From a virus (taxonomy: Duplodnaviria; Caudoviricetes), in the IMG/VR virus record IMGVR_UViG_3300047510_001736, positions 1-50,675 of that record: a stretch of 50,675 nucleotides of DNA; one strand, 5' to 3'. How positions within the stretch are numbered: the stretch's first letter is position 1; each line of letters opens with the position of its first letter. The position numbers and the translations under genes are program-made. A model generated the notes under the pieces. That model was not told the origin of the DNA. It made no database searches and saw only the letters and a list, made by a program, of their open reading frames with translations. Below are positions 791 to 45,805 of this stretch, piece after piece.

Positions 791-806
791 TGCTAACGAT
801 ATGCCA
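791..806 (-). promoter_or_regulatory. Sigma-54-type -24/-12 promoter for the capsid operon
   Basis: Minus strand TGGCATATCGTTAGCA (GG-N10-GC), intergenic. Preceded by AAGTC, as is the 6568-6583 promoter. Confidence 0.75.
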
Positions 807-4263: not shown

Positions 4264-6036
4264 TTATTTAGAGGTTACGAATTTGTGATATTGCCCGCGC
4301 AATTGTTCACGCGGCTCAGCCGAATTTAGCGTTTCTTGTGCCGGTCTGTGTGTCATCTGACCCCAGAGGATTGTGAGTTCTGTCTTTTCATCGAAAGTTA
4401 ATGGACCTTTTTTGTTCCTCTCTAAGAGTTCTGCAAAACGGCTTTCGGGTTCTGTTGTGTGCAGAACTTCTTCCTTAAATACTGCCAACGGAACACCATC
4501 AAAACACAACGCCAACGCGTCTGCTCGGTCTGGGGATGAGAGACCACGAGAGCGCATCTCTGCTTTAGGCTCTAAATATGTAACAATGCCTTTAACCGAA
4601 AAGCCGCGCGTGCAAAGTTGTTGGCGAGTGAGATCGTCGTTGACTGTAGGAAAGGCACGATCTTCAATAGCACGCTTAAGACGATTCCAGTTTTCAACGC
4701 CTCTGTTTTTGTAGAAATTCGGGTTGCTTGATCGGGCTTCATTTCGTACCGGCACGACATCATAACCAGCGTTTTGCACGCGCTGCACGATGGGTCGCCC
4801 CAGACCGCCATCGTCAATGCGTACTTCAGAGGGTGTAATGTTGAATTCCTTAATCCAACTGATGATCTGATTATGGAGAATTGCCTCGTTGCGAATCTTT
4901 GTAGTTCGAAGGTGGAGTTTTCCATGGACAAAGAAGTACGCCACAGTTTCGTCGCCGCCGAGCGATAGGTCGATGCCCGCTCGATTGGACAATCCAAACG
5001 TACGAGGTGGATTGTTTGGGTAGTTCTCAAACAAGGTTGATGGAATGAATGCAGCCTCGTCGAGTGAGGTAAACTCAGCCAACACTTGGCTTCGATAAAT
5101 AAGGGATTGCTCGCCATGTTCGTCTTTGAGATGCTCGATGTGTTTGCCGAGAAGATGAGGACAATCGAAGGCTGTGACTCTGCGCCAGTAAAATTCGCCT
5201 ATTTCGAGCTTGTCTGGGAATGTGCGCTTTGCTTTTGCGCAACGCTTGAAAAAATGGCCGGAGTTCTTGCCGGGCGAAGAGATCTCTAGCCAGTAGTTAT
5301 AGCCTGTGAATCGACTAAAGGCTTGGAACATTTCGTCCGTGATGGACTTTGCCTCGTTGATGATCACAGCCATCTCGGCGCCGGGCTCGTCGAACGGGTG
5401 ACGACCTTCGGCTTTACCGGGGTCATCTGTGACGAAGCATTTAATCTCGCTGCCGGTGTCATTACAAGTAATCAAGAACTCAACGATCTCAAAGACCTTG
5501 CGGCCATACGAGACATTGATCTCTTCGCAGATGTTCTTTATGTACTTATACGTCTGATCTTTAAGCTGCTCGTACGAAGATGACGTAATGACGCATCGAG
5601 AACGGACTTTGGAAAGGCAAAACCAGACAGCGAAGGAGCTAATAACGACCTGATCTTTTCCGCTTCCGTTGGCCGCGACAAGATTGTAGTATAGCGGCGT
5701 CTTGTCGGTTGGTCGAGTTTTAGGCAGATCGAGATCATTGATGTCGGTGTATCCTGCAAGTTGAAACAGAGTTTCTGCTTGCCATTTGTAGAGCTTTAAG
5801 TCGGGCCTGTGTGCGAGGAGCAAATCCGCTGGGGTGTCGATTTGATGGGCTATGTAGCGCTTGTTTGTTGGTGTTTGCTCAGTTACAGCAACAGCTTCAG
5901 GCGCCTTGGGCGGAGTCTCAACGGCTTTTTTGCGAGTTTCTTTAGCGCGGGCTTTCTCGGCAGCTTTCTCCGCTTCTAGCGAACGACGGGCTTGAACGAG
6001 TTTGAGTGTATCGGACGAGATTGGGGCTTTGATCAT
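4264..6036 (-). CDS. terL: Terminase large subunit
   Basis: Walker A AANGSGKD, Walker B-like VIINEAK, coupling motif ISSP, RNase H-like nuclease motifs GIDLSLGGD and SPDRADALAL. Confidence 0.92.
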   Translation of the reverse strand: MIKAPISSDTLKLVQARRSLEAEKAAEKARAKETRKKAVETPPKAPEAVAVTEQTPTNKRYIAHQIDTPADLLLAHRPDLKLYKWQAETLFQLAGYTDINDLDLPKTRPTDKTPLYYNLVAANGSGKDQVVISSFAVWFCLSKVRSRCVITSSSYEQLKDQTYKYIKNICEEINVSYGRKVFEIVEFLITCNDTGSEIKCFVTDDPGKAEGRHPFDEPGAEMAVIINEAKSITDEMFQAFSRFTGYNYWLEISSPGKNSGHFFKRCAKAKRTFPDKLEIGEFYWRRVTAFDCPHLLGKHIEHLKDEHGEQSLIYRSQVLAEFTSLDEAAFIPSTLFENYPNNPPRTFGLSNRAGIDLSLGGDETVAYFFVHGKLHLRTTKIRNEAILHNQIISWIKEFNITPSEVRIDDGGLGRPIVQRVQNAGYDVVPVRNEARSSNPNFYKNRGVENWNRLKRAIEDRAFPTVNDDLTRQQLCTRGFSVKGIVTYLEPKAEMRSRGLSSPDRADALALCFDGVPLAVFKEEVLHTTEPESRFAELLERNKKGPLTFDEKTELTILWGQMTHRPAQETLNSAEPREQLRGQYHKFVTSK

Positions 6037-6567: not shown

Positions 6568-6583
6568 AGCTTTTAGAGTGCCA
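6568..6583 (-). promoter_or_regulatory. Sigma-54-type promoter for the packaging/late arm
   Basis: Minus strand TGGCACTCTAAAAGCT (GG-N10-GC); predicted +1 ~6557, ATG at 6554. Confidence 0.8.
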
Positions 6584-9404: not shown

Positions 9405-9530
9405 ATGAACGAAGAACCACAAGACGAAAATCCCACGCTTGAAGATCTCCGCGCGGAGATTGGCCGTTATGACGACGAGCCTCTTGATGATGGTCCGGGA
9501 TGGGACTTAGGCCGGGAGGAAATGCTATGA
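9405..9530 (+). CDS. Very acidic small protein (41 aa)
   Basis: ATG at 9405 within ORF 9333..9530; 15 D/E versus 3 R. Confidence 0.55.
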   Translation: MNEEPQDENPTLEDLRAEIGRYDDEPLDDGPGWDLGREEML

Positions 9531-10088: not shown

Positions 10089-10103
10089 TTCTCCATAAAG
10101 CAC

Positions 10104-10130
10104 AAGCCCTTTACGGAGGGCTTCTCTTTG
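10104..10130 (+). terminator. Probable rho-independent terminator
   Basis: AAGCCCT-TTACGG-AGGGCTT then CTCTTT. Confidence 0.6.
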
Positions 10131-10158
10131 TGGAGCTTTTTTACACCAAGATAAAACT

Positions 10159-10174
10159 TGGCATTCAAGAAGCT
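10159..10174 (+). promoter_or_regulatory. Sigma-54-type promoter (ARAAGCT class)
   Basis: AAAACT-TGGCATTCAAGAAGCT (GG-N10-GC); near copy of the 11063 promoter; follows a terminator. Confidence 0.8.
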
Positions 10175-10278
10175 CTATCGCTTTGCCGCCCGTTGACGGC
10201 GTGCGAAATGTAAGTGGTCGCGCGACCTCAAACATCCCAAACTCAAGTCAACAAGTTAGAAATAAAAACATAAACATC

Positions 10279-10923
10279 ATGAGCACCAAGAACCTCGAAC
10301 TCGTCGCCTCCTTTGCTGGATCTGTCTTCCAGTCTGATGCCGACGGCAATCCTCTGTTCGTCACCTCTGAGCGTCACGTCCGCAAGACTGCCAAGAGCGC
10401 AGAGCGCACTGTCTCCTTCCAGAAGCCCGTTCTGGCCGTGAGCGATCTGCAATACTACATCAAGCGCGGCGAAGCCTTGGCTGAGATCGCGACCGAGCAC
10501 GTCACGAAGGTGAAGAATGAAGATGGCTCTGTGACCGAGACCAAGCGCGTCTCTAATGCGCTGAGCGATCTCGTCGCCGAGCACCTGCTCGACATCAGTG
10601 AAGACGCTTCTGAGGCCTATCTCAGCAAGGGCAACACTCCGGACTACTTCGCCGCCTTCATCTACGGTGTCAGCGCCGATCGTGAGACTGAGAAGTCTGT
10701 CCTCAAGAAGATCGAGTCGATCCGAAGCGAGATCGGCTCGATCGTGTTCGCTCTGGCTGGCGAGTGGACCGAAGACACTGCTCGCTCGCTGGGCGTGAGC
10801 GACAAGGACGCTGCGATCGCCAAGCAGTCCAACCTCATCGCCTCGCTGGCTCAGCTTCTCGCCAAGGCCAACGAGCTCAGCGCCGCGAAGGCCAAGCGTG
10901 AAGCCAAGAAGGCGAAGGTCTAA
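10279..10923 (+). CDS. Hypothetical protein, probably highly expressed (214 aa)
   Basis: Likely start MSTKNLELVAS at 10279; capsid-like codon bias; own promoter and terminator; Ala/Lys-rich C-terminus. Confidence 0.8.
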   Translation: MSTKNLELVASFAGSVFQSDADGNPLFVTSERHVRKTAKSAERTVSFQKPVLAVSDLQYYIKRGEALAEIATEHVTKVKNEDGSVTETKRVSNALSDLVAEHLLDISEDASEAYLSKGNTPDYFAAFIYGVSADRETEKSVLKKIESIRSEIGSIVFALAGEWTEDTARSLGVSDKDAAIAKQSNLIASLAQLLAKANELSAAKAKREAKKAKV

Positions 10924-10971
10924 TAGTTTTACTTCCTCACGAAGTAATCTGCAATACAACTAAATCACAAG

Positions 10972-11010
10972 GAGCCTCTGTGGGAGCAATCTCACAGAGG
11001 CTTTTTCTTT
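10972..11010 (+). terminator. Rho-independent terminator
   Basis: AGCCTCTGTGGGA-GCAA-TCTCACAGAGGCT then TTTTCTTTT. Confidence 0.85.
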
Positions 11011-11062
11011 TAGGTCTTTTTCAAAGTGTTCCACATTTTGGCATTCAACAGATGCCAAAACT

Positions 11063-11078
11063 TGGCACACTAGAAGCT
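11063..11078 (+). promoter_or_regulatory. Sigma-54-type promoter of phage rpoN (ARAAGCT class)
   Basis: AAAACT-TGGCACACTAGAAGCT (GG-N10-GC), ending 34 nt before the rpoN ATG. Confidence 0.8.
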
Positions 11079-11112
11079 CCTTTGCATAGGCTAACAACCA
11101 CCACTAGCCAAC

Positions 11113-12402
11113 ATGAAGTTTTCTCTTAACGTACAACAGACGCAAAGTCTGATCCTCTCGCCGCAGTTGCAGCAGTCGTTAGCTCTACTGCAAGCTCCTC
11201 TCTGTGAACTCCATAACCTGATGGAGTCTTTCACGCAGGATAATCCTTGCGTTGAACTCCTCGATAGAGACACGCCCGAAGAAGAGATCTTGTTTCGCAA
11301 TGACAAAGCAGAACTTCCACAAGACATGCAGTGGACTAGTTCTTACAGCCTGCCCGCCCGAGAGGAATATCCGCTGGAGAATAATCCCTCACGCGATGAG
11401 ACACTCGAAGAGTATCTTCTGAGAGAGTTGACAATAGCGCAACACGACACGAGCATCATACATCTGCTCGACGAGAGGGGATTCTACACGGGCGATCTTG
11501 ATGCACTAAGCACACGGCAAAGAGATGCTCTGCGTTTCATAAGAACACTAGAACCACGCGGACTAGGCGCTTTGGGATTAGCAGACTGCTTGTGCTTGCA
11601 GCTAGATGAGAACTCACTAGCCTACAAAATCCTCCAACAAGACGAAGACCTCTTTACTCGAAGACAAATCCCCCTTCTCTCTAAGAAATATAACGAAACA
11701 TTCACAACCATAGAGAATCTTTACAAATCTCTAAGCAAACTAAACTACAATCCAGCCTCCGAATTCTCTTCTTCAACGCACACACCTAAAGACGCAGAGA
11801 TCTTTCTCGATAAAGATCTCAATATCACGATCCCGTCCGAGCGTCTTCCGATCTACAAGATCAATCAGACTTATCTCAACTATCTCGACAAGCTCTCCGC
11901 GGCGGACAGAGAATACATCCGAGATCGCGTGAAGCAAGGTAAGTTTCTGATTCGTTCAATCACTCAGCGCCAGTCGACTTTGTTTAGTGTCACAAAAGCG
12001 ATCGTTGAGTACCAACAAGACTTCTTCCGCAGCGGAAACATTAAAGATCTCAAGCCTCTCATCATGGCACAGATCGCCACCGTGTGTGAGATCCATGAGA
12101 CTACCGTGTCAAGAGCAGTGCATAACAAATACATCAGCACGCCGCACGGCACATACGAATTAAGATTCTTCTTCACCTCAGCCATTATCAACCACAATGA
12201 AAACACCATGCAGTCAAACCTAAGCATAAAGAATCAGATCGCAGAGATCATCTCGCGCGAGGACAAATCTCGCCCACTCAGCGACGAGGACATCGTAGTT
12301 CTTCTTAAGAATACAATCGCTCGCCGCACAATCGCAAAATACAGAGCCGAACTAGGCATTCAACCGTCTCACCTCCGTAAAGTCTATGCCTCCTCAAAAT
12401 GA
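11113..12402 (+). CDS. rpoN: RNA polymerase sigma-54 factor (phage-encoded RpoN)
   Basis: Region I QQTQSLILSPQLQQSLALLQAP; core-binding motifs LDERGFY and LEPRGLGA..LADCLCLQL; HTH LKPL..QIA..CEIHETTVSRAVHNKYISTPHG; PLSD; RpoN box ARRTIAKYR. Confidence 0.97.
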   Translation: MKFSLNVQQTQSLILSPQLQQSLALLQAPLCELHNLMESFTQDNPCVELLDRDTPEEEILFRNDKAELPQDMQWTSSYSLPAREEYPLENNPSRDETLEEYLLRELTIAQHDTSIIHLLDERGFYTGDLDALSTRQRDALRFIRTLEPRGLGALGLADCLCLQLDENSLAYKILQQDEDLFTRRQIPLLSKKYNETFTTIENLYKSLSKLNYNPASEFSSSTHTPKDAEIFLDKDLNITIPSERLPIYKINQTYLNYLDKLSAADREYIRDRVKQGKFLIRSITQRQSTLFSVTKAIVEYQQDFFRSGNIKDLKPLIMAQIATVCEIHETTVSRAVHNKYISTPHGTYELRFFFTSAIINHNENTMQSNLSIKNQIAEIISREDKSRPLSDEDIVVLLKNTIARRTIAKYRAELGIQPSHLRKVYASSK

Positions 12403-13120
12403 AAACGACCAAAAAGAAAACCAAATCACAAGCGAATCCCTCTGGGGATTGCTCTTTCCAGCCTGCTCTTGTCATGTCGATACAGAGCGCGGCCACTTCA
12501 TCCGCAGAACTGCAGGAAATAATCTTGCCCATGCGATTGTTGCTACAAATGAAACAGCGGACTGGGTCAAAGCTCACTGCGCGGGTGAGCATATCCATAT
12601 ACAGAGAATCGACGAAGATGGATTGTCCTATAGCGTCATATGGGACTCTACAGAATGGAACCTTTCGGATGAAAGAAGAAGAACACTTCGTGCAAACCAC
12701 CTTGCCTCTGACATATCCTTCCTCCACAAAAAAGCGGAAGAGCTGCGGATCGAAATGATCGCCGACGCCTTGTCGAAGGCGAAGCTCTTCACCAAACAGA
12801 AAGCATTCGAAGTCGCCGCCGCGATCACATCGCAGGGCGAAGAAGTTTATCTTAATAAATCAAGGCAGTTGAATGATGCCTTAAAAGGCGCGTTCAACAA
12901 TATCAACTGTTACTTTCCCATCGAAGAAGTTCTCCGTATTGTAGACACTCGCGGTCTGTTAGAAAAGATTAGTCCTGTAAATATTCAACAAGAAACTCAA
13001 CCACAACAAGATGAACAAAAACCTACAGAAGAAATGTCAGAAGGAAGCAGCACGCCTCAAAGCCAAGATGGACAAGGCTACTACCAAGAATGTAGTCTTA
13101 CGCCAACGGCTGGAGGATGA
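12386..13120 (+). CDS. Hypothetical protein
   Basis: 244-aa ORF covering the gap after rpoN; overlaps its neighbours at both ends. Confidence 0.6.
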   Translation: MPPQNENDQKENQITSESLWGLLFPACSCHVDTERGHFIRRTAGNNLAHAIVATNETADWVKAHCAGEHIHIQRIDEDGLSYSVIWDSTEWNLSDERRRTLRANHLASDISFLHKKAEELRIEMIADALSKAKLFTKQKAFEVAAAITSQGEEVYLNKSRQLNDALKGAFNNINCYFPIEEVLRIVDTRGLLEKISPVNIQQETQPQQDEQKPTEEMSEGSSTPQSQDGQGYYQECSLTPTAGG

Positions 13121-13316
13121 AATGCTTGCGGTGCAAAAGAAACTTACACCCCTGCTTAACAAGAGAGATGCTATCAACCGCTCATTCGCACACCTTGACA
13201 AACCAACCGCAGAGAGTATCGTCTTCGGCGAGTACATCTCTCTCATCTCCCGCACTCCACAAGCCTACGGTTTCAAGAACGCTGAGGAAGTGATCGCGAA
13301 GTTGATGGACCTATAA
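13011..13316 (+). CDS. Hypothetical basic coiled-coil protein
   Basis: 101 aa; ends 4 nt before the helicase ATG. Confidence 0.6.
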   Translation: MNKNLQKKCQKEAARLKAKMDKATTKNVVLRQRLEDEMLAVQKKLTPLLNKRDAINRSFAHLDKPTAESIVFGEYISLISRTPQAYGFKNAEEVIAKLMDL

Positions 13317-13320
13317 GACT

Positions 13321-15492
13321 ATGAACATATTCTCTACGCCAGCCGGAGTAAAGAAAGCCGCGCCAGCAGAAGCTACTTACACAAGCAAGGAAGATCGCCT
13401 TCAACAGACCGCTCTCACCACCGCGCGAGCGCAAGCGAAGAAGCTGACAGATCTCTACCGCAAGGAGCCTTATGAGTGGGACTTCTTACAGCGTGAGTTG
13501 AATCTCACCACCATTCCATCCATCAAGCTAGACTATGCAACCCTCTTAGGATTTCTACAGGGCTGGGTTAATCAAGCCCCTCTAAGGCAACAAAAGGAAG
13601 CTCTTCGCCTCGCAGAGGAAGCAGCCTTGCGGGAGAAAAGAACCTACAGCACCATCGACATCAAGCTCCCCAACGGCCTCGACTTCAAGCCGCAGCAGAA
13701 GAAAGCTATCGCGGCCTTGCTCGACGTGCTGTACAAAGACAACCTTAACGGCGCACTTGTCCCACTCGGCACCGGCAAAGGTAAGAGCTGGATCGCCGCC
13801 GGTCTCGCACTATGGCTACAGAAACATGACCCGCAAAAGTTCTGTAACTTTCTCGGCTTGTTTCCGCCTATCCTAATCATCACCAAGAAGTCTGTCGTCC
13901 TTGACTTCCGAGACACACTGAAGAAGCTGGGCCTTGAAAGCGTCGGCCTCGCTGTCGACGTGTGGTCATACAACGAAGTCTTCTCCACGAAGAACAAGAA
14001 CTTCTTCAAATCCGAAACCACGGAGATCTTCGGTCAAGCTACAAACGTGATACGCTTCAACCTGCCCGAGCAAGCGGCGCCCAAGCTTATCATCCTCGAC
14101 GAGTGTCAGGAGATTAAGAAAGAGAAGTCTAAGAGAACTAAATATCTCGAAGCCTTCTTGCAATTCCCATCTATCAAGTGGGTCTTCACCTCAGCCACGC
14201 CCGCAGTCACGGTGTGGGACACAATGTTCATGACTCTCGCCATGCGCTTGCCTTACGGAGCAAGACCTCTCACGAGAGAGACATTCCCAGAGTTCGCTCG
14301 CACTCTCACTCTCGGCGCAGATCCCCGCTCGGCGAATGCAGCCGCACTCGAACGCTGGGCCGGTGCGCTTGGCGACAGACTAGTCAAGCCGCCGGGCGAT
14401 CCTCAAAAGGTGAAGGCGCTCAACAAAGTCAAGCTCTTTGAGATCACTGATCCAGCGAATCAGAACATGCTCAAGAATGCGATGAAGAATTATCTTGAGG
14501 CTATCGAGCGCACTGGTCGTTCGATAGATCCACAAGGTCAAGTCATGGTCGCCTTCATGGTCATGGCCCGAGCGGCCGAGCTTGCTACTGTAGACACATG
14601 GGTCGCAGACGCGATCGCCGCTCATCAACAAGGCTATGCGCCAGTCATTGCAATCCGCTTCACCGAGACTCTCAAGGAGCTAGTCATGAAGCTCTGTGAT
14701 AGTGAATACTTCCGCAGTAAGAATCTCAACAAACAAAAGATCTCCCTCATCTGGGGCGGCAACAAAGAGATCAAGCCCGAGGAACTTCTCCCAGAAACCC
14801 GCGCGGCAGAGATCGCTGCGAAGATGGGCATGTGGATTCTTGACAATCCGCACGAGGCAAGAAAGCCTAAAGCAGATGACATTGGGATAACCAAAGAGGA
14901 GTTCCGAGCCTTCCACAAAGGCATCAAGTACACAAGCGAGAGAATCTTCCGAGAGATGACAAAGGATGCATTCGCCGCGCGCAATGAGAAGCTTAGAGAG
15001 ATGAAGCTTCACAATCAGAACCAGAAAGAAAGACATGAGAACGTGCAAGCGTTCCTCAATGGAGAGACTGAGTTCTGTATCTATACCCTCTCAAGCGGTG
15101 GTACGGGTATCTCACTGGATCATCGCTATCAACACACACGACCACGCAAAGTCGCATCGACTATGACCTATTGGGCTGAGGAGTTTGCTCAAGCTCTCGG
15201 TCGTTGTGTCCGTATCACAACCCTCACCGACACACTGCAAGAGATCTATGTTCCCGAGGGCACAATCCTCAGTGATCACATGGCTCCTAAGCTTGCGAGA
15301 AAACTCAAATCCGTAGACGCAATCGGCTCATCGAACGTCGATCTGGCTGGCGAACTTGAGAAGGCACTCAAGGATAAGGCGGCGGTCGTGAGACTTACCG
15401 CCGAAGATCTCACCGCCTCTGAATCCTCCGGCGTCGTTGAGGTTGAGGAGGAAGAAGATGATGAGGAGGAACTTGTAGAGTCTGCCAGTTAA
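13321..15492 (+). CDS. Superfamily 2 helicase
   Basis: Q motif KPQQ, motif I GTGKGKS, II ILDECQ, III TSATP, V SGGTGISL, VI QALGRCVR; acidic tail. Confidence 0.9.
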   Translation: MNIFSTPAGVKKAAPAEATYTSKEDRLQQTALTTARAQAKKLTDLYRKEPYEWDFLQRELNLTTIPSIKLDYATLLGFLQGWVNQAPLRQQKEALRLAEEAALREKRTYSTIDIKLPNGLDFKPQQKKAIAALLDVLYKDNLNGALVPLGTGKGKSWIAAGLALWLQKHDPQKFCNFLGLFPPILIITKKSVVLDFRDTLKKLGLESVGLAVDVWSYNEVFSTKNKNFFKSETTEIFGQATNVIRFNLPEQAAPKLIILDECQEIKKEKSKRTKYLEAFLQFPSIKWVFTSATPAVTVWDTMFMTLAMRLPYGARPLTRETFPEFARTLTLGADPRSANAAALERWAGALGDRLVKPPGDPQKVKALNKVKLFEITDPANQNMLKNAMKNYLEAIERTGRSIDPQGQVMVAFMVMARAAELATVDTWVADAIAAHQQGYAPVIAIRFTETLKELVMKLCDSEYFRSKNLNKQKISLIWGGNKEIKPEELLPETRAAEIAAKMGMWILDNPHEARKPKADDIGITKEEFRAFHKGIKYTSERIFREMTKDAFAARNEKLREMKLHNQNQKERHENVQAFLNGETEFCIYTLSSGGTGISLDHRYQHTRPRKVASTMTYWAEEFAQALGRCVRITTLTDTLQEIYVPEGTILSDHMAPKLARKLKSVDAIGSSNVDLAGELEKALKDKAAVVRLTAEDLTASESSGVVEVEEEEDDEEELVESAS

Positions 15493-15540
15493 TTTAGTCA
15501 TGCCTAAATCATATCACCTCACAACAACAAGTCAACAAAA

Positions 15541-15765
15541 ATGTCCGACAAAGATCCTTTCCGCGTGCGGAATCCCGGATATCTCAGCATGTATTTGTTG
15601 GACTATCTGGTGGGCCAAGCTCTCACTGGGCTGTTGGCTAATCCAAACAACAAGGAAACCTTACAGCGTAATGCAGAGATCGCATTCGAACAGGCTGAAG
15701 CTGTGATCGAGTTGCGTGAACAAAGACTGGAGAAACAAAAACAAAAACAAAATGAACGCGTATGA
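15541..15765 (+). CDS. Small hypothetical phage protein
   Basis: 74 aa; LLDYLVGQALTGLLANP pattern typical of a common small phage protein family. Confidence 0.7.
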   Translation: MSDKDPFRVRNPGYLSMYLLDYLVGQALTGLLANPNNKETLQRNAEIAFEQAEAVIELREQRLEKQKQKQNERV

Positions 15766-16030
15766 ATGGAAACCAACAGGCGGCCCGAAGTGCCCGGGCT
15801 GTGGTGGAGAAGAGATAATAAATCAATACAAGCATAAGCAATGGCGCTGCGGATCTCACTGGTGTCATGAAGAGACAAAAGACTTCAAGCAGTCAACAGT
15901 CTGCCAGCGTTATGAACTAGATACCTTACACGCAAAGATAAAACAACTATCAAACACATTCGAATCATATCAGAAAGAAATCAAACGACAAGAAGCATTC
16001 AAATATACACCACCTGCAGGAAAGGATTAA
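15752..16030 (+). CDS. Zinc-ribbon plus coiled-coil protein
   Basis: CPGCGG...WRCGS..C; likely start MNAYEWK. Confidence 0.6.
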   Translation: MNAYEWKPTGGPKCPGCGGEEIINQYKHKQWRCGSHWCHEETKDFKQSTVCQRYELDTLHAKIKQLSNTFESYQKEIKRQEAFKYTPPAGKD

Positions 16031-16033
16031 CAT

Positions 16034-16336
16034 ATGTCACATCAACGTAAATCAACGCACATCACCCGTAAGAACTACTTCCTCACCTACGAGGAGAAGA
16101 TGCACATCCGCGAGTACATCCACGCTAACCCGCATCTAACTCGCGTGCAAGCGGGCGAGTACTTCGGAGTCTCGCGGGGCACTATCTCAAACATCAACAA
16201 GATGCCTTATCACAAGGAACACTATGATAAGATGATCTTTGAGTTGACTAATCTGAAGAATCAGATGGCTTCGAGGATTGCTGCGATGGACTTGAAGATC
16301 ATGCAACTACAAACCAAACTAGCAAAGTATGAGTAA
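16034..16336 (+). CDS. Helix-turn-helix DNA-binding protein
   Basis: LTRVQAGEYFGVSRGTISNI HTH followed by a coiled coil. Confidence 0.75.
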   Translation: MSHQRKSTHITRKNYFLTYEEKMHIREYIHANPHLTRVQAGEYFGVSRGTISNINKMPYHKEHYDKMIFELTNLKNQMASRIAAMDLKIMQLQTKLAKYE

Positions 16337-16502
16337 GTTTCATCAACGCGGTGATCAGTACGTCAGCAAGTATAAACTTGGATCACTCGACGAAGAGTAT
16401 CTTACGCGTGAAGAGATGGCCTCTACGCGCAAAGCTATCATGAAGTATAAGCTAAGAGATCCCGGGCCTTCAATATATTCAAAGAGAAAGAAGAAGAAAT
16501 GA
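16329..16502 (+). CDS. Small basic hypothetical protein (57 aa)
   Basis: MSKFHQRGDQYVSKYK...KRKKKK; overlaps both neighbours in operon fashion. Confidence 0.5.
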   Translation: MSKFHQRGDQYVSKYKLGSLDEEYLTREEMASTRKAIMKYKLRDPGPSIYSKRKKKK

Positions 16503-16687
16503 AAGGTAAGAGAGTAAGAAGTCTGGAAGCGTTAATCTTCCTTGCCCAACTAAAGCGCAGCGTCCTCATGCCACCGCGCATGAGCCAACGTCCTTGGCCC
16601 GCTGCATTTGTAATCAACATGAATCTTCTACACGTCTATCATCTACTGCGAGAAGGTATCTACATCTACGAACCTAAAACAAAATGA
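16499..16687 (+). CDS. Small hypothetical protein
   Basis: 62 aa; ATGA overlap with the activator gene. Confidence 0.55.
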   Translation: MKGKRVRSLEALIFLAQLKRSVLMPPRMSQRPWPAAFVINMNLLHVYHLLREGIYIYEPKTK

Positions 16688-17523
16688 ACATCCACGCAAA
16701 CGTCCTTAACACCGCCGCGGCCGACAGCTTCCTTGATAACATCCGCAAAGATGTGTTGAAGATCACAGGCGATGCACTGAAGGAGAACTCCATTCAATCA
16801 ATCGCATCGTGCTATGCCACGCAAGATCCTCTCACCAAGAGGATGCTCACCGCGGCGATAACCTACGCCGAGGAGAGCTTGCAGAAATACAATGTCCTGA
16901 TTGAGGGGCCTTCTGGTACTGGTAAAGAACTCATCGCAAAGATCCTAGCACACAAACGGAAGCCTCTCAAAGCTATGAACATGGCTGGCTTGACTGATAC
17001 ACTTTTTCAGTCAGAGCTATTCGGCTACATGCCCGGCGCTTTCACCGGTGCTAAGTCTCGCGGGGATGTGGGCTTCCTAAGAGCAGTCGGCAAGGGCACT
17101 GCTTTCCTCGACGAGATAGGCGAGTTACCGCTGGCGCATCAAGCTAAGCTCTTAAGAGTCTTGCAGGATAAAACCGTATTGCCCGTCGGGGCTGTTGATC
17201 CCGTGCCTATTCAATGTCGCTTCGTTTTTGCGACGAATCGAGATCTGTTGAAGATGGTAAAGGAAGGCTCGTTTAGGGAAGACCTATACTTCCGCATTAA
17301 CGAACTCGGTCTGAAGACTCGCTCGTTGTATGATCGCGGGGTTCAGGAAATCCGTTGTGTCGCCAGCGCTATCATCGCCGAAGAAAACTGGACGCCTTTG
17401 GGGGAAAGGGAGCACTTCGGCGACGAGACATTCTCGTTTGGGAATGTCCGGGCGTTGCGTAATCTATTACTCAAGCGTGAACTCGGAGAGATTGAATTGC
17501 CGGAATATGATAAAGGAGAATAA
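16684..17523 (+). CDS. Sigma-54-dependent activator (bEBP AAA+ domain only)
   Basis: VLIEGPSGTGKE (Walker A), SELFGYMPGAFTGA, FLDEIGE (Walker B), QAKLLRVLQ, RFVFATNRDL, FREDLYFRIN, GNVRALRN. No receiver/GAF domain and no C-terminal HTH. Confidence 0.96.
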   Translation: MNIHANVLNTAAADSFLDNIRKDVLKITGDALKENSIQSIASCYATQDPLTKRMLTAAITYAEESLQKYNVLIEGPSGTGKELIAKILAHKRKPLKAMNMAGLTDTLFQSELFGYMPGAFTGAKSRGDVGFLRAVGKGTAFLDEIGELPLAHQAKLLRVLQDKTVLPVGAVDPVPIQCRFVFATNRDLLKMVKEGSFREDLYFRINELGLKTRSLYDRGVQEIRCVASAIIAEENWTPLGEREHFGDETFSFGNVRALRNLLLKRELGEIELPEYDKGE

Positions 17524-17527
17524 AGAT

Positions 17528-17857
17528 ATGGACAACCAACAATTATCAGACAAGTTCAGCCTCGACGGCATCGAACCCTACATGCTTCAAGTATCAAACC
17601 TGAACAAGCCACTCCTCACAATCCACGCCGACGGCCGTATTACCGTGTCCGAAGATCTCAAACCCACTGAGACAGCGGCCGAGGTGTTGAAGATCATGCA
17701 GGATATGTGGTTGCATGATCAGCAGGTTGTGAAGATAAAGGAGTTAAAAGAAAAGATCAAGCGGCTGGAGGAGACAGGAGATGAAATCGTAATCAATTAC
17801 GTTAACAGCCTGTCGGCCTTTGAACTGTGGCGCAAAGCCAAGGAGGCCAAACCATGA
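17528..17857 (+). CDS. Hypothetical protein
   Basis: Likely start MDNQQLS just after the activator stop; coiled-coil C-terminus. Confidence 0.6.
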   Translation: MDNQQLSDKFSLDGIEPYMLQVSNLNKPLLTIHADGRITVSEDLKPTETAAEVLKIMQDMWLHDQQVVKIKELKEKIKRLEETGDEIVINYVNSLSAFELWRKAKEAKP

Positions 17858-18051
17858 CCCCAGAAATCAAACTCCACGAACTCCCGCCCGATGATCCGCG
17901 AAGAAATACATTCCTCAAAGAACTCAACGTGCGTATTCGTTGCCGCCATACCAAAGCCACACGCGACCCGCGAACGTGGAAGATAAAGAATAATACCTAT
18001 AACCACCTTGCCGCAACGTGGCAAAATAACTTTGACTTTGTAGTCCTATGA
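17854..18051 (+). CDS. Small hypothetical protein
   Basis: Start MTPEIKL with ATGA overlaps. Confidence 0.6.
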   Translation: MTPEIKLHELPPDDPRRNTFLKELNVRIRCRHTKATRDPRTWKIKNNTYNHLAATWQNNFDFVVL

Positions 18052-18704
18052 ATATCTTTAATCAACAACCACAACCTCCGCAAGATCCAGCGGCCCTACT
18101 AAAACAGGCCGAAGCGTTACTAAATAAAACAGAGCGTAAACAAGGCTGGCCTTACTACGACATCAAGCATGCTGTGCAGTTTGCGCAGCTTGTCGTTAAG
18201 CTCTCTAAGATCCCCTCTAAGAAAGCCACCATCAACTCACTCACGCTAAGACAGCAGCCTCAAACCATCCGCGCCCGCCTCTCACAAGGCAAGGCTTTCC
18301 TCACAGACAAAGGCACCGCCGTGCTTCAAGGCGCCATCGACCCTGATGATATCCCGATCGTCGACGAGCTTAAAGAAAAGGTGCAGATCTCTGTGCGCAA
18401 AGTCAACCTCATCATCGAACTCGTCGAGCCTGTGGATAATATCCTCGACGCCATGACTCCTCTCATGGGCGGCACAGACGAAGATCCTACAACATTCAAC
18501 GAAGATGTCTTCCGCGAGGAGATCGTAGAGTTCATGAACAGCGGCGAGGTTGGAAGTCAGGCAAGCTGGCAGAACTACACCTCAAGTGCGGAGAAGTTCG
18601 CGCGACAGCTCGCCATGCAAGACAACACCATTATCATCGAAACAACGCCCACTGAACTTATCGTGATGAAGATGAGTGAGGAGATGTTGAAAGGTCTGGA
18701 GTGA
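18048..18704 (+). CDS. Hypothetical protein
   Basis: 218 aa with phage-typical codon usage; no motif recognised. Confidence 0.75.
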   Translation: MNIFNQQPQPPQDPAALLKQAEALLNKTERKQGWPYYDIKHAVQFAQLVVKLSKIPSKKATINSLTLRQQPQTIRARLSQGKAFLTDKGTAVLQGAIDPDDIPIVDELKEKVQISVRKVNLIIELVEPVDNILDAMTPLMGGTDEDPTTFNEDVFREEIVEFMNSGEVGSQASWQNYTSSAEKFARQLAMQDNTIIIETTPTELIVMKMSEEMLKGLE

Positions 18705-18725
18705 TAAGTAAAACACAACCACAAA

Positions 18726-19136
18726 ATGCAAATCTTCCTCCCATATCCCGACATCGAACAAAGCGCACGCGTGCTCGACACCCAGCGCCTGATGAAGCAG
18801 CGCGTCGAGTCTTATCAAATCCTCAACACAATCCAAGGTAAGTCAGAAGGCTGGCGCAGTCATCCCGCCGTCAAGATGGTGAAAGACTATCCAGCGTGGC
18901 TCTGTCTGTATAGCATCAAGATCTGCCAAGAAGCCCGGCGACGTGGCTATGTTGACAATCTCCTCCCGCACTTCGAGCAAGAGCTTATCAAATACCAATA
19001 CGTCATCCAGCCACACTGGCTCGGCTCTTATCTACACAAGACACATCAGAGTAATCTGATAAGAAAGAAACCAGACTATTACTCCATCAAGTTCCCCAAT
19101 ATCCCAGACAACCTACCATACTTCTGGCCTCTATGA
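18726..19136 (+). CDS. Pyrimidine-dimer DNA glycosylase / endonuclease V-like protein
   Basis: MQIFLPYPD....ARVLD..RL.KQRVE..QIL and GWRSHPAVKM signature of the DenV/MSMEG_6728-like family. Confidence 0.85.
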   Translation: MQIFLPYPDIEQSARVLDTQRLMKQRVESYQILNTIQGKSEGWRSHPAVKMVKDYPAWLCLYSIKICQEARRRGYVDNLLPHFEQELIKYQYVIQPHWLGSYLHKTHQSNLIRKKPDYYSIKFPNIPDNLPYFWPL

Positions 19137-19333
19137 ATCTATTCAACTGGTATCGCAACTGGCGCATACAGCGCATCGAAAGGAAGATCGCATACCTCGA
19201 AAAGTTCTGTGATTCTTTCCATGACAGAGAAGGGAAAGTTCCCTATATTGTATCAACCACTCACAGCCTACCCGAAAAACGCGCTAAGGTTGCTGAGCTT
19301 CGTAAGAAGATCTATCATCTCCAAGAGTTCTGA
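19133..19333 (+). CDS. Small hypothetical protein
   Basis: 66 aa, operon-packed. Confidence 0.55.
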   Translation: MNLFNWYRNWRIQRIERKIAYLEKFCDSFHDREGKVPYIVSTTHSLPEKRAKVAELRKKIYHLQEF

Positions 19334-19336
19334 CTT

Positions 19337-19783
19337 ATGAAAATCCTTATGATAGGTCTATCAATACTCGCCACAGAAACAACACTAGTCGCCCTTCAGC
19401 AAGACTTCAATGCGAAGCTTAGGGCACTATCCACAATCGAATCCAACGACAACGACAAAGCGAAAGGACGACACGGTGAACTCTCCCGATACCAACTCAA
19501 GCGATCAGTCTGGCGCCAGCATTTCCCTTCTGAGAAGGATGCTCGGCATATTCCGGCCGAGGCGCGGCGCTGTGCTAAAGCGCATCTATGCTGGCTGGAA
19601 CTCAGACTCTGTCTCGCCCAGCGAAAGAACACTCCAGATCCAAGAGATGTATACGCGGCCTGGAATCTCGGCCTTGCGGCTTTCTCAAGGAAAGATTACG
19701 ACTTCAACAGACTCAGCAAATCAGCCAAGGCAAAGTGCGAAAGATTCTATAACCTTTACAGCGACTACAGAAATAGCCAATAA
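19337..19783 (+). CDS. Lysozyme-fold lytic transglycosylase-like protein
   Basis: ALSTIES..NDKAKG..GE...YQL catalytic-Glu motif and YAAWNLG motif; hydrophobic N-terminus. Confidence 0.7.
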   Translation: MKILMIGLSILATETTLVALQQDFNAKLRALSTIESNDNDKAKGRHGELSRYQLKRSVWRQHFPSEKDARHIPAEARRCAKAHLCWLELRLCLAQRKNTPDPRDVYAAWNLGLAAFSRKDYDFNRLSKSAKAKCERFYNLYSDYRNSQ

Positions 19784-19787
19784 CAAC

Positions 19788-19985
19788 ATGAAAGAAACAA
19801 TCACAGACGCCATCGCCACTGAAGTAGATATCGCGAAGCCAAGAGAGTATTACTTCTATGCCTATCAGTATAGACTCAATGGCTCTTGGTTCTCGACTAT
19901 GCTGTACGACACGCCTGAGAAAGCCTCAGAGAACACCACAGATAAAGCTATCGTGCGCAGAAAATTGTGCTGTGTTGTTCTATGA
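19788..19985 (+). CDS. Small hypothetical protein
   Basis: Likely start MKETITDA within ORF 19410..19985. Confidence 0.55.
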   Translation: MKETITDAIATEVDIAKPREYYFYAYQYRLNGSWFSTMLYDTPEKASENTTDKAIVRRKLCCVVL

Positions 19986-19988
19986 CCT

Positions 19989-20219
19989 ATGAGCGCATCA
20001 GATAACTCCAATCTCAACGAACTCGACCTTCTTCTCGGGCTACCAAAACCCGTAGAAGAGATGACAGACAAAGAGCTTGAGAAGTTTCTTCTCAAACACT
20101 TTCCTCATACCCGCCCAACAGGCACCGATCTTGCGTCCCTGCTCAACGATCCTCTGCTAAAAGGCATAGACGTTCAAGCCATCATCAATCAAACTCAGAA
20201 CTTCAAACTGAAGAAATAA
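19989..20219 (+). CDS. Small hypothetical protein
   Basis: 76 aa, operon-packed. Confidence 0.65.
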   Translation: MSASDNSNLNELDLLLGLPKPVEEMTDKELEKFLLKHFPHTRPTGTDLASLLNDPLLKGIDVQAIINQTQNFKLKK

Positions 20220-21986: not shown

Positions 21987-22247
21987 ATGAGCATTGAAAC
22001 TATCGCACCTGTCCCAACTAACACGGCTTTCCTAGAAAAGGAACGCGTCGACATTCGGCTCTGCCTCACAATCAAGCGTAACCCACAGACGGGTGAAGTT
22101 AAAGCGTACGTCAATCAACTAGACCTCACTAACTATGATGGTCTTATTGATAATGTTCCTGAGTTTCTTCAAGAGTATAACATAAGATATGGTATAGGTA
22201 TCTTCATAGAAGCTGCAAAGAATCATCTATCAAACGTGGCCCAATAA
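21987..22247 (+). CDS. Small hypothetical protein
   Basis: 86 aa, operon-packed. Confidence 0.55.
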   Translation: MSIETIAPVPTNTAFLEKERVDIRLCLTIKRNPQTGEVKAYVNQLDLTNYDGLIDNVPEFLQEYNIRYGIGIFIEAAKNHLSNVAQ

Positions 22248-22252
22248 AAGCT
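22237..22252 (+). promoter_or_regulatory. Sigma-54-type promoter for the SSB-like gene (ARAAGCT class)
   Basis: TGGCCCAATAAAAGCT (GG-N10-GC); 20/21 nt identical to the 27133 site over GGCCCAAKAAAAGCTCCCTCC. Confidence 0.75.
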
Positions 22253-22974: not shown

Positions 22975-23289
22975 ATGTGGACATTTGAAGCAGGCTTAGC
23001 TTGGTGCTGTCAGGCAAATACACGGCTCGTCGACCATAACCTACATACGGCTCTAACCGGAAGCGTTCTATTCAAAGGATCTTCTGGGAAAGATCTTGAC
23101 GTTATTATTTATCCTCATAAGACTAGTTGTCCGAGTCCTTTGATTCATGAAATATGCAACATGCTGAGTCTTAGATTTGTACAGGATCGCACAGGCGCGC
23201 ATAATAGATATTCTGAAAAAGACTCCAAGAGAGTCTACCACACAGAAACCTTCGACGGCAAACGTATTGACCTCTTTCTCCTCCAATGA
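22975..23289 (+). CDS. Minimal nucleotidyltransferase (Pol beta superfamily)-like protein
   Basis: Likely start MWTFEAG; hG[GS] motif LTGSV, DxD motif KDLDV, third acid in RIDLF. Confidence 0.6.
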   Translation: MWTFEAGLAWCCQANTRLVDHNLHTALTGSVLFKGSSGKDLDVIIYPHKTSCPSPLIHEICNMLSLRFVQDRTGAHNRYSEKDSKRVYHTETFDGKRIDLFLLQ

Positions 23290-24716
23290 TAGCCCTCGTT
23301 CTGCATGGACCCTCGCGCTTTGATAAAGAAAACAACGGAATACTTCTTGGACCCGCCGGAGATTTTGTTCGTGGTGTGCTTGCTGGTCATAGCATTGATC
23401 TGGACGATCCGAACGCTGTCTTCGTCACCTTCGCCGACGACTTCTTCAAAGGCGCAAACAAACCAAGTGGAATCAAGAAGATCATTTTCGCCGGAGCTAA
23501 AAGCCTTGATTATCTACCAGCAGCTAAAGGAAAAACCCTAGACGCCTTTCGCGGCGTTGTTTACACCTCACCCACAAAGACGCAATACATCGTAACCTAT
23601 TGGCCCCAAGATTGTGTGGACGCTTGGGCCGTCGAAGACTCTCTTGAAGGCGAAGGCGACAATGAAGACATCCTCGACAAAGACGACGGCAAGAGCACAA
23701 GCCCCACTAAAAGATCCAATTACAGTTTTTGGTTTGCACAAGACATCAAGAAACTCCTAACATATGACCCCGAAAAAGTTCAACCTGAACCCCAAACCGT
23801 CTCTTGCCAAAGAGCCGATGAGGCAACAAGAGTCTTTAACTACGACGGACCAATCTTCTTCGACATCGAGACTCACCCCAAAACCAACACCCTCACCTGC
23901 TTGGCCATTGCGTGTGGCGAAAGTCCTGTGTATTCTGTGCCTGTGTATGATTGGGGTGGCAATCTTAATGTCGGTGTGGTTTTCTTTGCTCGCCTCGTTA
24001 GAGAGATGAAGAAGCGTAGAGTGGTTATTCACAACGCCCTCTTCGATCTCTGCTTTCTCGCCGCCTTCTACAAGATCCCATTCGGCACAGATATCTACGA
24101 TACGATGGTCGCTGGGCATCGAATCTTTCCCGAGGCCGAGAAGTCTCTAGCCCATCAAGCAACGATCTACTCCAACAGACCCTTTCATAAAGATGAAGCA
24201 GGGAACTTTGATCCTCGCAATCGAGCACAATTTGAGCAGCTCCGCGCTTACAACGTTAAAGACGTTATTGTGCTCCGAGAGATTTACCTCGGTCAGCTTG
24301 AAGTCTGCAGACACGACAGCGGACTTCAAGATTCAGTCGATCAAGCTAGTAAATCCCTCGCAGACTATGCATTCATGTCACTGCACGGAATGCACTTCGA
24401 CCCTGTTAAAAGAGGTGCTATCGTCCGACGCTGTGAAGAACGCTATAAACAACTCGCCCGGGTCCTCAAAATCCTCGTAGGCTTCGACCTCAACCCCGGC
24501 AGCCCGGATCAAGTAGTGAATTATCTGCACACTCAGATGCGCTACAAGGCCGAGAAGACAACAGACAAAGGCGCGCCGTCGGTCGCGGGTGACGCTTTAT
24601 ATAAGATCAAACTCAAGCATCCGAAGAACGTCGCCATCGACGTAATCTTCGAGATGCGTCGTATGGTTAAGCTGAAAGGTATGTTAGGATTTCAACAATG
24701 GATTTGGGAATATTAA
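23286..24716 (+). CDS. polA: DNA polymerase A, N-terminal subunit (degenerate UDG-like + 3'-5' exonuclease + thumb)
   Basis: Exo I FFDIET, Exo II HNALFDL, DTMV, Exo III YNVKDV; GMHFD and LNPGSPDQV thumb motif; N-terminus resembles family-4 UDG. Confidence 0.88.
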   Translation: MIALVLHGPSRFDKENNGILLGPAGDFVRGVLAGHSIDLDDPNAVFVTFADDFFKGANKPSGIKKIIFAGAKSLDYLPAAKGKTLDAFRGVVYTSPTKTQYIVTYWPQDCVDAWAVEDSLEGEGDNEDILDKDDGKSTSPTKRSNYSFWFAQDIKKLLTYDPEKVQPEPQTVSCQRADEATRVFNYDGPIFFDIETHPKTNTLTCLAIACGESPVYSVPVYDWGGNLNVGVVFFARLVREMKKRRVVIHNALFDLCFLAAFYKIPFGTDIYDTMVAGHRIFPEAEKSLAHQATIYSNRPFHKDEAGNFDPRNRAQFEQLRAYNVKDVIVLREIYLGQLEVCRHDSGLQDSVDQASKSLADYAFMSLHGMHFDPVKRGAIVRRCEERYKQLARVLKILVGFDLNPGSPDQVVNYLHTQMRYKAEKTTDKGAPSVAGDALYKIKLKHPKNVAIDVIFEMRRMVKLKGMLGFQQWIWEY

Positions 24717-27131: not shown

Positions 27132-27147
27132 CGGCCCAAGAAAAGCT
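27132..27147 (+). promoter_or_regulatory. Sigma-54-type promoter (ARAAGCT class)
   Basis: CGGCCCAAGAAAAGCT (GG-N10-GC), intergenic; predicted +1 ~27158, ATG at 27159. Confidence 0.75.
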
Positions 27148-44839: not shown

Positions 44840-45805
44840 TTAAAGATTGAAAGCTTTTTTAACCGACACAGTCATTTGATCGAGTGTGAAGTTACGCGCT
44901 TTTATAAAAGCCCCGGTGGCTTTCTCCATGACTTCTTGCTTATTATCATAAGCGTAACGCATAGCGTATGCAAGATCGTCAACATTTAGCCTGCCTATCT
45001 CGCCTGTGTAGTCATAAATGTTTCCGGGCGAAGGAATCATTTGAGCGGGAACCATCCACGAACAAGTGCTATCAAGAAATTCAAGCGGCCCTCCGATCGC
45101 GGGGCAGATCACAGGACGCCCATGCGCAATCGCGTCATGATGCGGATATCCCCAGCCCTCAGCGCCACAAGCGGAGACAAAAACATGATTTTGCCGATGT
45201 AAATAATTGACATTTGTCTGATATTCGCGAATTACTTTAACGCGGCTGTCAAATGTGATCAATTGTTTACAGCCCGGACCTTGTTTCATGATTAAATGCA
45301 CGTCCGCTTCGTGGGGAAATGCTCTCGTAAACGCGTCTATGATATCTTGTGCACGTTTACGCTGCCAAAACATCATGTCTTGATAGATTGTGTAGAAAGA
45401 GAATACATCAAAAGACGAAAGCGGCAGAGGTTCGTATTCAGACGCTAATGGGATAATAGCCGCAGAGAATCCTGCACGCTCAAAAACCTCTTGCGTGAAT
45501 TTACACGTTACTACAAGCTTACGATTGGGTTGTTTTGCAAGATATTCACAGTCTTGCGCGCGGAGTTTTGTAGTTTCCCAAAAAGTCAACAGATAGTCTG
45601 ATGAGATACTTGACGACGGGCCATCAATAGCCGCAAAGAAATGTCCGTCGCGAGATTGTGTAAGATCTGGTTTATGTCCGAGTCGCCTAAGACATTCAGC
45701 AAGGCTAAATGTTACACGACCAAACGAATTAATTGGGTTAAGAGAGCCTGTATGTATTCTCATGGATGCTCTGGGAGAGAGCGTAAAAAATGCCAAAGCT
45801 TTCAC
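44840..45805 (-). CDS. GT-B glycosyltransferase (GT4-like)
   Basis: FWETT, RKRAQDIIDAF, FVSACGAEGWGYPHHDAIAHGRPVI. Confidence 0.85.
   Translation of the reverse strand: MKALAFFTLSPRASMRIHTGSLNPINSFGRVTFSLAECLRRLGHKPDLTQSRDGHFFAAIDGPSSSISSDYLLTFWETTKLRAQDCEYLAKQPNRKLVVTCKFTQEVFERAGFSAAIIPLASEYEPLPLSSFDVFSFYTIYQDMMFWQRKRAQDIIDAFTRAFPHEADVHLIMKQGPGCKQLITFDSRVKVIREYQTNVNYLHRQNHVFVSACGAEGWGYPHHDAIAHGRPVICPAIGGPLEFLDSTCSWMVPAQMIPSPGNIYDYTGEIGRLNVDDLAYAMRYAYDNKQEVMEKATGAFIKARNFTLDQMTVSVKKAFNL

Follow-up and report, generated by a model that had tools for sequence, protein, structure and literature searches.

The 50,675-nucleotide (nt) genome of an uncultured freshwater virus of the Caudoviricetes, IMG/VR record IMGVR_UViG_3300047510_001736 (the window, which spans the whole record), encodes a sigma-54 activator that consists of the AAA+ domain only, with all of its motifs intact.

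16684..17523, plus strand: sigma-54 activator gene, AAA+-only, 279 amino acids (aa), identified by open reading frame (ORF), Pfam, alignment and an AlphaFold2 model

This protein is probably a true sigma-54 activator in domain-less form, serving as a developmental regulator of the phage. It is likely to work as an AAA+ engine alone, which opens the phage -24/-12 promoters from solution and thereby times middle and late expression.

Neither end of the activator can be extended to reveal a hidden domain, because an in-frame TAA lies two codons 5′ of the ATG and the stop codon is fixed at 17521-17523. Pfam assigned Sigma54_activat (PF00158) to residues 63-210 (E = 3.7e-49, 167.1 bits against a cut-off of 20.2); the only other matches of the 279-aa protein were to generic AAA models, with no receiver match. 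The translation contains the Walker A motif GPSGTGKE (residues 75-82), the GAFTGA motif of the L1 loop (118-123), the Walker B DE (143-144), the segment FREDLYFR with the arginine fingers R198 and R204, and GNVR (253-256) with the sensor II residue R256. An AlphaFold2 model built with 26 homologues (predicted local distance difference test score, pLDDT, 87.7; predicted template modelling score, pTM, 0.80) revealed a helix of lower confidence at residues 10-34, followed by a complete activator fold. The best fold match was the central domain of FleQ (142-393), which superimposed on model residues 39-276 with a Z score of 26.2 and a root-mean-square deviation of 2.1 Å over 231 aligned residues, and the top Foldseek matches were all central domains of bacterial enhancer-binding proteins (bEBPs). 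Residues 7-251 of PspF aligned to model residues 43-273 (Z 23.5), placing the start of the AAA+ fold near residue 43 and leaving approximately 42 N-terminal residues outside it, while at the C-terminus only 3-6 residues remain beyond the part that aligns to central domains of known structure.

A six-frame scan of the entire genome (50,675 bp, E ≤ 1) gave no match to HTH_8 (PF02954, the Fis-type helix-turn-helix, HTH). The protein accordingly has no C-terminal Fis-type HTH of the PspF/HrpRS type, as no PF02954 is present, and no N-terminal receiver domain of the FlgR/CtcC type, as only the ~42 residues precede the AAA+ fold; its architecture is that of a bEBP with neither a regulatory nor a DNA-binding domain, as in FleT. 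The sensor-less, HTH-less architecture put forward in the original prediction was thus borne out by Pfam, the fixed ends, the genome-wide PF02954 scan and the fold alignment. The stretches flanking the core are short, as had been stated, but they measure 74 residues ahead of the first Walker A glycine (of which ~42 lie outside the fold), rather than about 65, and 23 residues after GNVR, rather than about 20. Thirty-one NCBIfam models for named bEBP equivalogs match the activator, including PrdR, RtcR, PrpR, NtrC and PspF (AtoC, NorR and NifA were also in the test set), and all 25 of those listed scored below cut-off and matched the central domain only; the best was PrdR, with 173.7 bits against a cut-off of 795, and PspF gave 111.7 against 443.55. 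From its membership in this family, the GAFTGA loop of the activator is predicted to contact Region I of sigma-54.

The short form is not a local truncation: all 26 aligned relatives, with identities down to 36%, share it, as do 44 of the 50 IMG/VR loci examined (242-355 aa). The other six loci encode long forms (440-611 aa) without phage genes nearby. Across the 26 homologues the Walker A motif including K81, as well as D143, E144, R198, R204 and R256, are invariant; within GAFTGA, G118, F120, T121 and G122 are invariant, A123 is found in at least 90%, and A119 varies (GSFTGA, GTFTGG). A profile scan of IMG/VR with the activator gave 325 matching stretches. A profile search of 1.84 billion cluster representatives (50% identity) returned 165,329 matches at E ≤ 0.001, which correspond to the whole activator superfamily, and 76 of the best 150 representatives were short forms (≤360 aa, median 288.5), 66 of them with a GAFTGA-like loop. 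When Pfam was run on these 76 proteins and the window protein, all 77 matched Sigma54_activat and none matched HTH_8, receiver, GAF or PAS models. Conservation of the sensor-less, HTH-less form throughout the family therefore held for the aligned relatives, for the loci and for the Pfam set alike. In an IQ-TREE analysis of 109 core domains, a branch with a Shimodaira-Hasegawa-like approximate likelihood ratio test (SH-aLRT) support of 99 parted 64 short phage forms from the 45 long bEBPs sampled; the tree was quick and unrooted, with some long branches, and its long side comprised six long IMG/VR forms and 39 long cellular-type forms, the long proteins having been taken as every second one of at least 400 aa among P0027-P0120, the most query-like. 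The PHROG family that matches the activator, phrog_7998, is listed as "unknown function". Short activators of this type occur in a broad family on many ~50-kb viral contigs.

The phage protein resembles the engineered DctD250 and the PspF 1-275 and NtrC1 central-domain constructs of the Protein Data Bank, which consist of the ~250-residue AAA+ domain only. Its model superimposes on PspF 7-251 and on the central domains of NtrC1 and FleQ with Z scores of 23-26. Whereas those constructs are laboratory truncations of three-domain proteins, the phage activator is a natural gene with an extra ~42-residue N-terminal helix. FlgR has reportedly been described as enhancer-independent, to go by the title of Brahmachary et al. 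2004. DctD250, an engineered AAA+-only protein of 250 residues, was reported to be constitutive, promiscuous, enhancer-independent and signal-free in Salmonella and E. coli, and to raise 16 of the 20 predicted Salmonella sigma-54 operons (PMC3844500). The phage activator may best be read as the natural counterpart of DctD250. According to a review, activators of this class are hexameric AAA+ ATPases with GAFTGA loops that touch sigma-54 Region I and the -12 DNA. In the table of that review, E. coli PspF lacks an N-terminal sensor, as the phage activator does, and has its activity set in trans; PspF, however, has a C-terminal HTH and binds enhancers, whereas HTH_8 is absent from both the phage activator and its genome. 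The same table shows FlgR of Helicobacter pylori and CtcC of Chlamydia without a DNA-binding domain, like the phage protein, although both keep a phosphorylatable receiver domain that the phage activator does not have. What the original prediction had said of PspF, FlgR and CtcC agrees with the table and with one reference title.

The target of such an activator is encoded by the phage itself.

11113..12402, plus strand: sigma-54 gene, 429 aa, with Pfam PF00309, PF04963 and PF04552 above cut-off

The predicted factor is full, with an activator-interacting Region I, a core-binding domain, a DNA-binding domain and the RpoN box. Eight phage sigma-54 homologues (72-89% identity) show no variation in Region I, the HTH or the RpoN box, and many homologues (72-97% identity) are found on metagenome contigs, the longest of which, among those listed, is 73.7 kb.

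Promoter sites of the matching type were found in the phage. The strict pattern TGGCAY-N5-WWGC, which has a tighter -24 and a looser -12 element and was derived from sites standing before genes, occurs five times in the genome, compared to 0.84 expected, and none of 100 shuffles reached five. All five sites lie ahead of genes and in the correct orientation.

6569..6583, minus strand: P1, TGGCAC-N5-AAGC, with the ATG (6554) of the leading gene in the packaging/head block 14 nt downstream
792..806, minus strand: P2, TGGCAT-N5-TAGC, after a 378-aa gene and 156 nt before a 432-aa gene
10159..10173, plus strand: P3, TGGCAT-N5-AAGC, ahead of a conserved 246-aa gene
11063..11077, plus strand: P4, TGGCAC-N5-AAGC, 36 nt before the sigma-54 start codon
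7240..7254, plus strand: P5, TGGCAT-N5-TTGC, opening the rightward block, with an ATG 12 nt past the GC

P4 heads a unit that runs from sigma-54 through a 244-aa gene, the helicase and small ORFs to the activator. Hairpins lie directly upstream of two of the sites.

10104..10135, plus strand: terminator-like hairpin directly 5′ of P3
10969..11006, plus strand: terminator-like hairpin with a 17-bp stem and a T run, directly 5′ of P4

A position weight matrix (PWM) built from 31 related sites pointed to three weaker candidates.

22237..22251, plus strand: TGGCCC-N5-AAGC, PWM 14.9, between the Sak4-like gene and the DNA polymerase block
27132..27146, plus strand: CGGCCC-N5-AAGC, PWM 12.8, before the primase gene
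45781..45795, minus strand: TGGCAT-N5-ACGC, PWM 13.4, heading the glycosyltransferase/tail-fibre block

The GG and GC elements of these promoters are 10 nt apart and stand in orientation upstream of genes, as in -24/-12 promoters, with AAGC often serving as the -12 element. The presence of such promoters, one of them heading the packaging and head genes, is thus supported by the excess of strict sites and by P1. At P1 (6554-6583) and P5 (7240-7279) the start codon lies only 12-15 nt past the conserved GC, a spacing from which both transcripts are predicted to have little or no leader; relatives show the same short spacing at their late-gene promoter. Upstream of the sigma-54 gene, positions 11038-11068 (plus strand) read TTGGCAT, 7 nt, ATGCCAA, AAC and TTGGCAC, that is, three half-sites, the last of which holds the -24 element of P4. 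These half-sites form inverted repeats overlapping the sigma-54 gene promoter, an arrangement shared by most relatives compared, and they might act as an operator or as an autoregulatory decoy.

The position of the activator gene amid replication genes, between the helicase and the exonuclease, Sak4 and polymerase genes, might suggest an AAA+ ATPase for other work, such as replication or remodelling, with the GG-N10-GC sites bound by something else. A related case comes from Mosigvirus AV110, whose AAA+ protein Htm (Gp204) has a bEBP-like fold and, like the phage activator, no HTH; a bioRxiv preprint describes it as a broad host modulator (10.64898/2026.10.06.757011). Htm, however, is reported there to lack the L1 loop and GAFTGA and to have DD in place of DE in Walker B (10.64898/2026.10.06.757011), whereas the phage activator has all of the bEBP motifs. 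Given that its GAFTGA loop, the hallmark of sigma-54 contact, is intact, that 66 of the 76 short representatives keep a GAFTGA-like loop, that the phage carries its own sigma-54 and that the spacing of the promoter motif is exactly -24/-12, a function of this other kind is very improbable.

The promoters are conserved by position in relatives. Orthologous upstream regions, chosen by position and not by pattern, were scored for TGGYHH-N5-NNGC, which was present before the first late gene (P1) in 6 of 6, before the 246-aa gene in 16 of 16, and before sigma-54 in 19 of 19, compared to 135 of 2572 background windows of equal length. The GG and GC elements are constant across relatives while the spacer and flanks vary, and P5-related copies are also present in relatives. 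In IMG/VR, 33 loci contain close or moderate relatives of the activator, 29 of them close (92-99% identity); the sigma-54 gene lies ~4.3-5.9 kb upstream of the activator in 21 of these 29, and the remaining eight loci extend less than 3 kb upstream. G001, a complete phage of 49,848 bp that has terminal repeats and is syntenic with the window at 28-76% protein identity, carries a strict site at each of the positions corresponding to P1, P2, P3, P4 and the 22237 candidate (for the last, G001 26096-26110). Sites at the P1 and P2 places were found in G001, G007 and G008, and equivalent syntenic positions are occupied by promoter sites even where phages have no more than 23-65% protein identity. 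Forty distant short-form loci (618 kb) contain 74 promoter-pattern sites, compared to 7.15 expected; 69 of the 74 are on the activator strand, and 16 loci have one that begins 3-31 nt past the activator stop codon. Five complete distant genomes contain 35 sites, compared to five for a reversed-pattern control. In two of these five genomes, one site precedes a block with terminase-like and portal-like homologues, which corresponds to the P1 place, and a second follows the homologue of the 378-aa gene, which corresponds to the P2 place. Gene order is retained as well, with a helicase homologue upstream of the activator in 37 of the 40 distant loci and homologues of the exonuclease, Sak4, split polymerase and primase (22-52% identity) downstream.

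The sigma-54 gene is not shared to the same extent. In G001 the activator (62% identity) directly follows the helicase, and sigma-54 was found neither by the Pfam DNA-binding-domain model nor by tblastn; the homologues of the 246-aa and 244-aa genes are adjacent there, whereas in the window sigma-54 sits between them. None of five other complete relatives has a sigma-54 gene. Since these six complete relatives contain the activator and the promoters without sigma-54, the activator there must use the sigma-54 of the host, and the earlier suggestion that it might fire on host sigma-54 gains support from the gene content of these genomes. We lean, by a narrow margin, towards a large, diverse clade of ~50-kb uncultured phages that runs middle and late expression on sigma-54 by way of AAA+-only timers needing neither enhancer nor signal; one freshwater subclade, to which the window belongs, would in addition have captured sigma-54.

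Engagement of host sigma-54 raises the question of whether the activator serves chiefly as a host-takeover factor, firing or jamming the host sigma-54 regulon (e.g. envelope, nitrogen or motility genes) rather than phage promoters. DctD250 is reported to turn on most host sigma-54 operons indiscriminately (PMC3844500), and relatives without a phage sigma-54 necessarily engage the host sigma-54 holoenzyme. The sigma-54-type sites, however, are strongly enriched in the phage genomes, strand-biased and conserved in position ahead of phage genes, and a purely host-directed factor fails to explain sites borne by the phage. A main role of this kind is therefore quite improbable, while effects on the host may remain as a side effect; if the phage does run its programme on sigma-54, infection is predicted to disturb the host sigma-54 regulon.

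Under the favoured reading, in which phage promoters are the target, sigma-54 RNA polymerase, formed with the phage's own sigma-54 or with that of the host in relatives without the gene, would wait at the promoters in closed complexes. Accumulation of the activator would lead to ATP-bound hexamers, so that its concentration would set the time of firing. The GAFTGA loops would then contact sigma-54 Region I from solution, without enhancer or signal, and the promoters would open, switching on the replication-side units and the packaging, head and late genes. Because both the activator and the sigma-54 genes stand behind sigma-54-type promoters, the circuit would probably be self-reinforcing after a trigger by read-through or by another early promoter. 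The scheme predicts an ATPase that assembles into hexamers and is constitutively active in solution, independently of an enhancer; the timing and the feedback are likewise predictions. The original prediction had regarded synthesis of the activator as the switch itself; with the gene behind hairpin-insulated sigma-54-type promoters, positive feedback that needs a first trigger looks likelier. Two observations fit action from solution. The regions upstream (-30 to -230) of eight candidate promoters share two 8-mers, compared to a mean of 3.7 in random sets, a crude test that degenerate or promoter-specific enhancer sites would escape. The phage also encodes a single PF00158 gene, so that no second activator, and no FleQ-like partner, is supplied by the phage itself.

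Several observations weigh against this scheme. The activator gene is downstream of P3 and P4, each insulated by a hairpin, so that its first expression would require a separate trigger. Truncated activators are weaker from solution than when enhancer-bound: DctD250 at glnK was reported to be about ten-fold less effective than enhancer-bound NtrC, with 180 versus 1778 Miller units (PMC3844500). No role is assigned to the ~42 N-terminal residues of the activator (helix pLDDT 59-71) or to the nearly invariant T46, and a partner or a regulator could bind there. Pfam AAA_lid_14 matches only 6 of the 77 short family members, indicating that the lid of this family is divergent. The -12 element in this phage group is mostly AAGC, GAGC or AGGC, not TTGC, and a search with the canonical TGGCAC-N5-TTGC at up to two mismatches gave 34 sites, compared to 48.9 expected; as this was no enrichment, the stricter pattern was used instead. 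Finally, of the five small ORFs that separate the activator gene from the helicase gene, one is HTH-like at sub-threshold level (CENP-B_N 0.0077, Sigma70_r4 0.012).

16034-16336, plus strand: 100-aa ORF, HTH-like with a coiled-coil-like tail, 350 bp upstream of the activator

Some of these points bear on a possible dependence on a partner, for which FleT of Rhodobacter (Cereibacter) sphaeroides is the model. FleT, absent from the original prediction, is the published precedent for an activator without both domains, and by its published description it is like the phage activator in having neither a regulatory nor a DNA-binding domain. A reference title in PMC7277832 speaks of a "hetero-oligomeric FleQ/FleT activator". 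FleT is a cellular protein of the flagellar hierarchy with FleQ as its partner, whereas the phage has no second PF00158 gene. It is described in a review as the only known bEBP without both domains, and it works in complex with the DNA-binding FleQ (PMC7277832). By analogy, the phage protein could form mixed rings with a DNA-binding host bEBP or rely on a phage adaptor, for example the product of ORF 16034-16336, perhaps through its N-terminal helix. The precedent itself, the unassigned N-terminal residues and the sub-threshold HTH matches of that ORF would favour such an arrangement, which we nevertheless regard as unlikely, because the phage has a single PF00158 gene, no common upstream motif was found at its promoters, the N-terminal stretch is poorly conserved over the family, and engineered AAA+-only domains were reported to be active on their own (PMC3844500). 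ORF 16034-16336 and two other small ORFs gave no tblastn match in G001 (E ≤ 1e-3), even though the activator is present there right after the helicase. With only sub-threshold HTH matches and no counterpart in G001, this ORF was rejected as an obligatory DNA-binding partner.

Phage transcription is timed in known cases by sigma-70-family factors, by activators or anti-terminators of the sigma-70 holoenzyme, or by phage RNA polymerases, and late transcription is timed by T4 gp55/gp33, the SPO1 sigma factors, Mu Mor/C and P2 Ogr. The activator would be like these in being a phage-made factor that redirects host RNA polymerase to middle or late promoters. To our knowledge, all of them use sigma-70-type factors or activators of the sigma-70 holoenzyme, and none uses sigma-54 or an AAA+ ATPase, so that a phage programme run on sigma-54 would, if true, constitute a new route to timing transcription. 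Since the sigma-54 holoenzyme is promoter-bound yet silent until the ATPase acts, this route would offer a tight off-state and a sharp, concentration-dependent on-switch. A natural minimal activator also bears on the old question of how far sigma-54 activation needs enhancers and signal domains. If the reading is correct, this sigma-54 would be the first encoded by a virus, and together with the activator and the promoters it would make up a kit that is portable as a whole. The phage would also provide a small orthogonal three-part switch for synthetic biology (activator, 279 aa; sigma factor, 429 aa; promoter core, 15 nt).

In a literature search that had subscription journals mostly outside its coverage, nothing turned up on GAFTGA activators or sigma-54 genes carried by phages, nor on phage promoters that depend on sigma-54. 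Among GenBank phages (INPHARED), the helicase had no match and a polymerase half matched three records at only 22-24% identity. The matches to the activator (52 records, all below 60% identity) and to sigma-54 (15 records) were read as bacterial DNA filed as phage, the records being mostly fragmentary, unannotated, or matching in genes that are labelled as ordinary regulators of bacteria. The GenBank phage records yielded neither a bona fide sigma-54 of a phage nor a cultured relative. A scan of genome contigs with the sigma-54 alignment detected a phage-type sigma-54 (79% identity) on one 4358-bp contig (L085) binned in a Phycisphaerales metagenome-assembled genome, whose own sigma-54 is only 32% identical. 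This was not taken as evidence of the host; L085 is probably a phage fragment in the bin and a weak host hint at best. Contigs from one freshwater RNA-Seq run (X24), with 85-99% likeness, covered 28 of 30 bins of positions 500-20000, including sigma-54 and the helicase; they give no starts, strand or level and could reflect DNA carry-over, and were not used as evidence.

The ends of the window (1-63 and 50613-50675) overlap by 63 nt with one mismatch, indicating a complete or circularly assembled phage genome of ~50.6 kb. Closing the circle makes visible a gene across the junction, the one that follows P2.

636 wrapping to 49950, minus strand: 432-aa gene across the window junction

Its position across the junction makes it probable that ORFs 41-223 and 328-609 on the plus strand are spurious. 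The plus-strand block from ~7.2 to 28.6 kb encodes the helicase, a PD-(D/E)XK exonuclease, the Sak4-like protein, a split family-A DNA polymerase, a ligase and a primase, and the minus strand encodes large proteins, including a 1815-aa ART-PolyVal protein, a beta-helix protein and a tail-fibre-like protein. Shine-Dalgarno-like motifs precede only 6 of 42 genes, and no tRNA genes were found in the phage genome. The genes mentioned above in connection with promoters P1 to P4 are as follows.

4264..6036, minus strand: 590-aa gene downstream of P1, probable terminase large subunit (PHROG E = 0.015; a lead only)
826-1965: 378-aa gene, followed by P2
10183-10923, plus strand: conserved 246-aa gene, no Pfam or PHROG family
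12386-13120, plus strand: conserved 244-aa gene, no Pfam or PHROG family

The 590-aa product, from the second gene of its minus-strand block, is probably the terminase large subunit, an assignment to be taken as a lead; its neighbours in the Atlas are clusters of viral proteins, 13-20% of whose members have Terminase_6N or Terminase_6C. The 246-aa and 244-aa genes flank sigma-54, each of them behind a sigma-54-type promoter in this phage or in G001, and may be additional components of the transcription switch.

The family-A DNA polymerase is divided between two genes, one for the exonuclease and N-terminal part and one for the C-terminal part, with an ATP-dependent ligase and a 180-aa gene between them, and this split is retained in distant relatives.

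23286-24716, 24721-25569, 25581-26123 and 26114-27118, plus strand: split polymerase, ligase and 180-aa gene region

An AT-rich divergent region of 538 bp separates the gene blocks and contains repeats within 6690-6850 and 6865-7046, namely GTGATTTATYAGTGTTAAATCCTT, ACGGTGTGATTTATCA and CTTATTGATAAAT, each present twice, together with several inverted repeats; it is a possible origin or operator region. The 1815-aa protein (29383-34833, minus strand) contains the ART-PolyVal ADP-ribosyltransferase domain at residues 856-1015 and is partly conserved in G001. A pyrimidine-dimer DNA glycosylase of the T4 endonuclease V type is encoded at 18726-19136 on the plus strand (PF03013, 3.4e-24).

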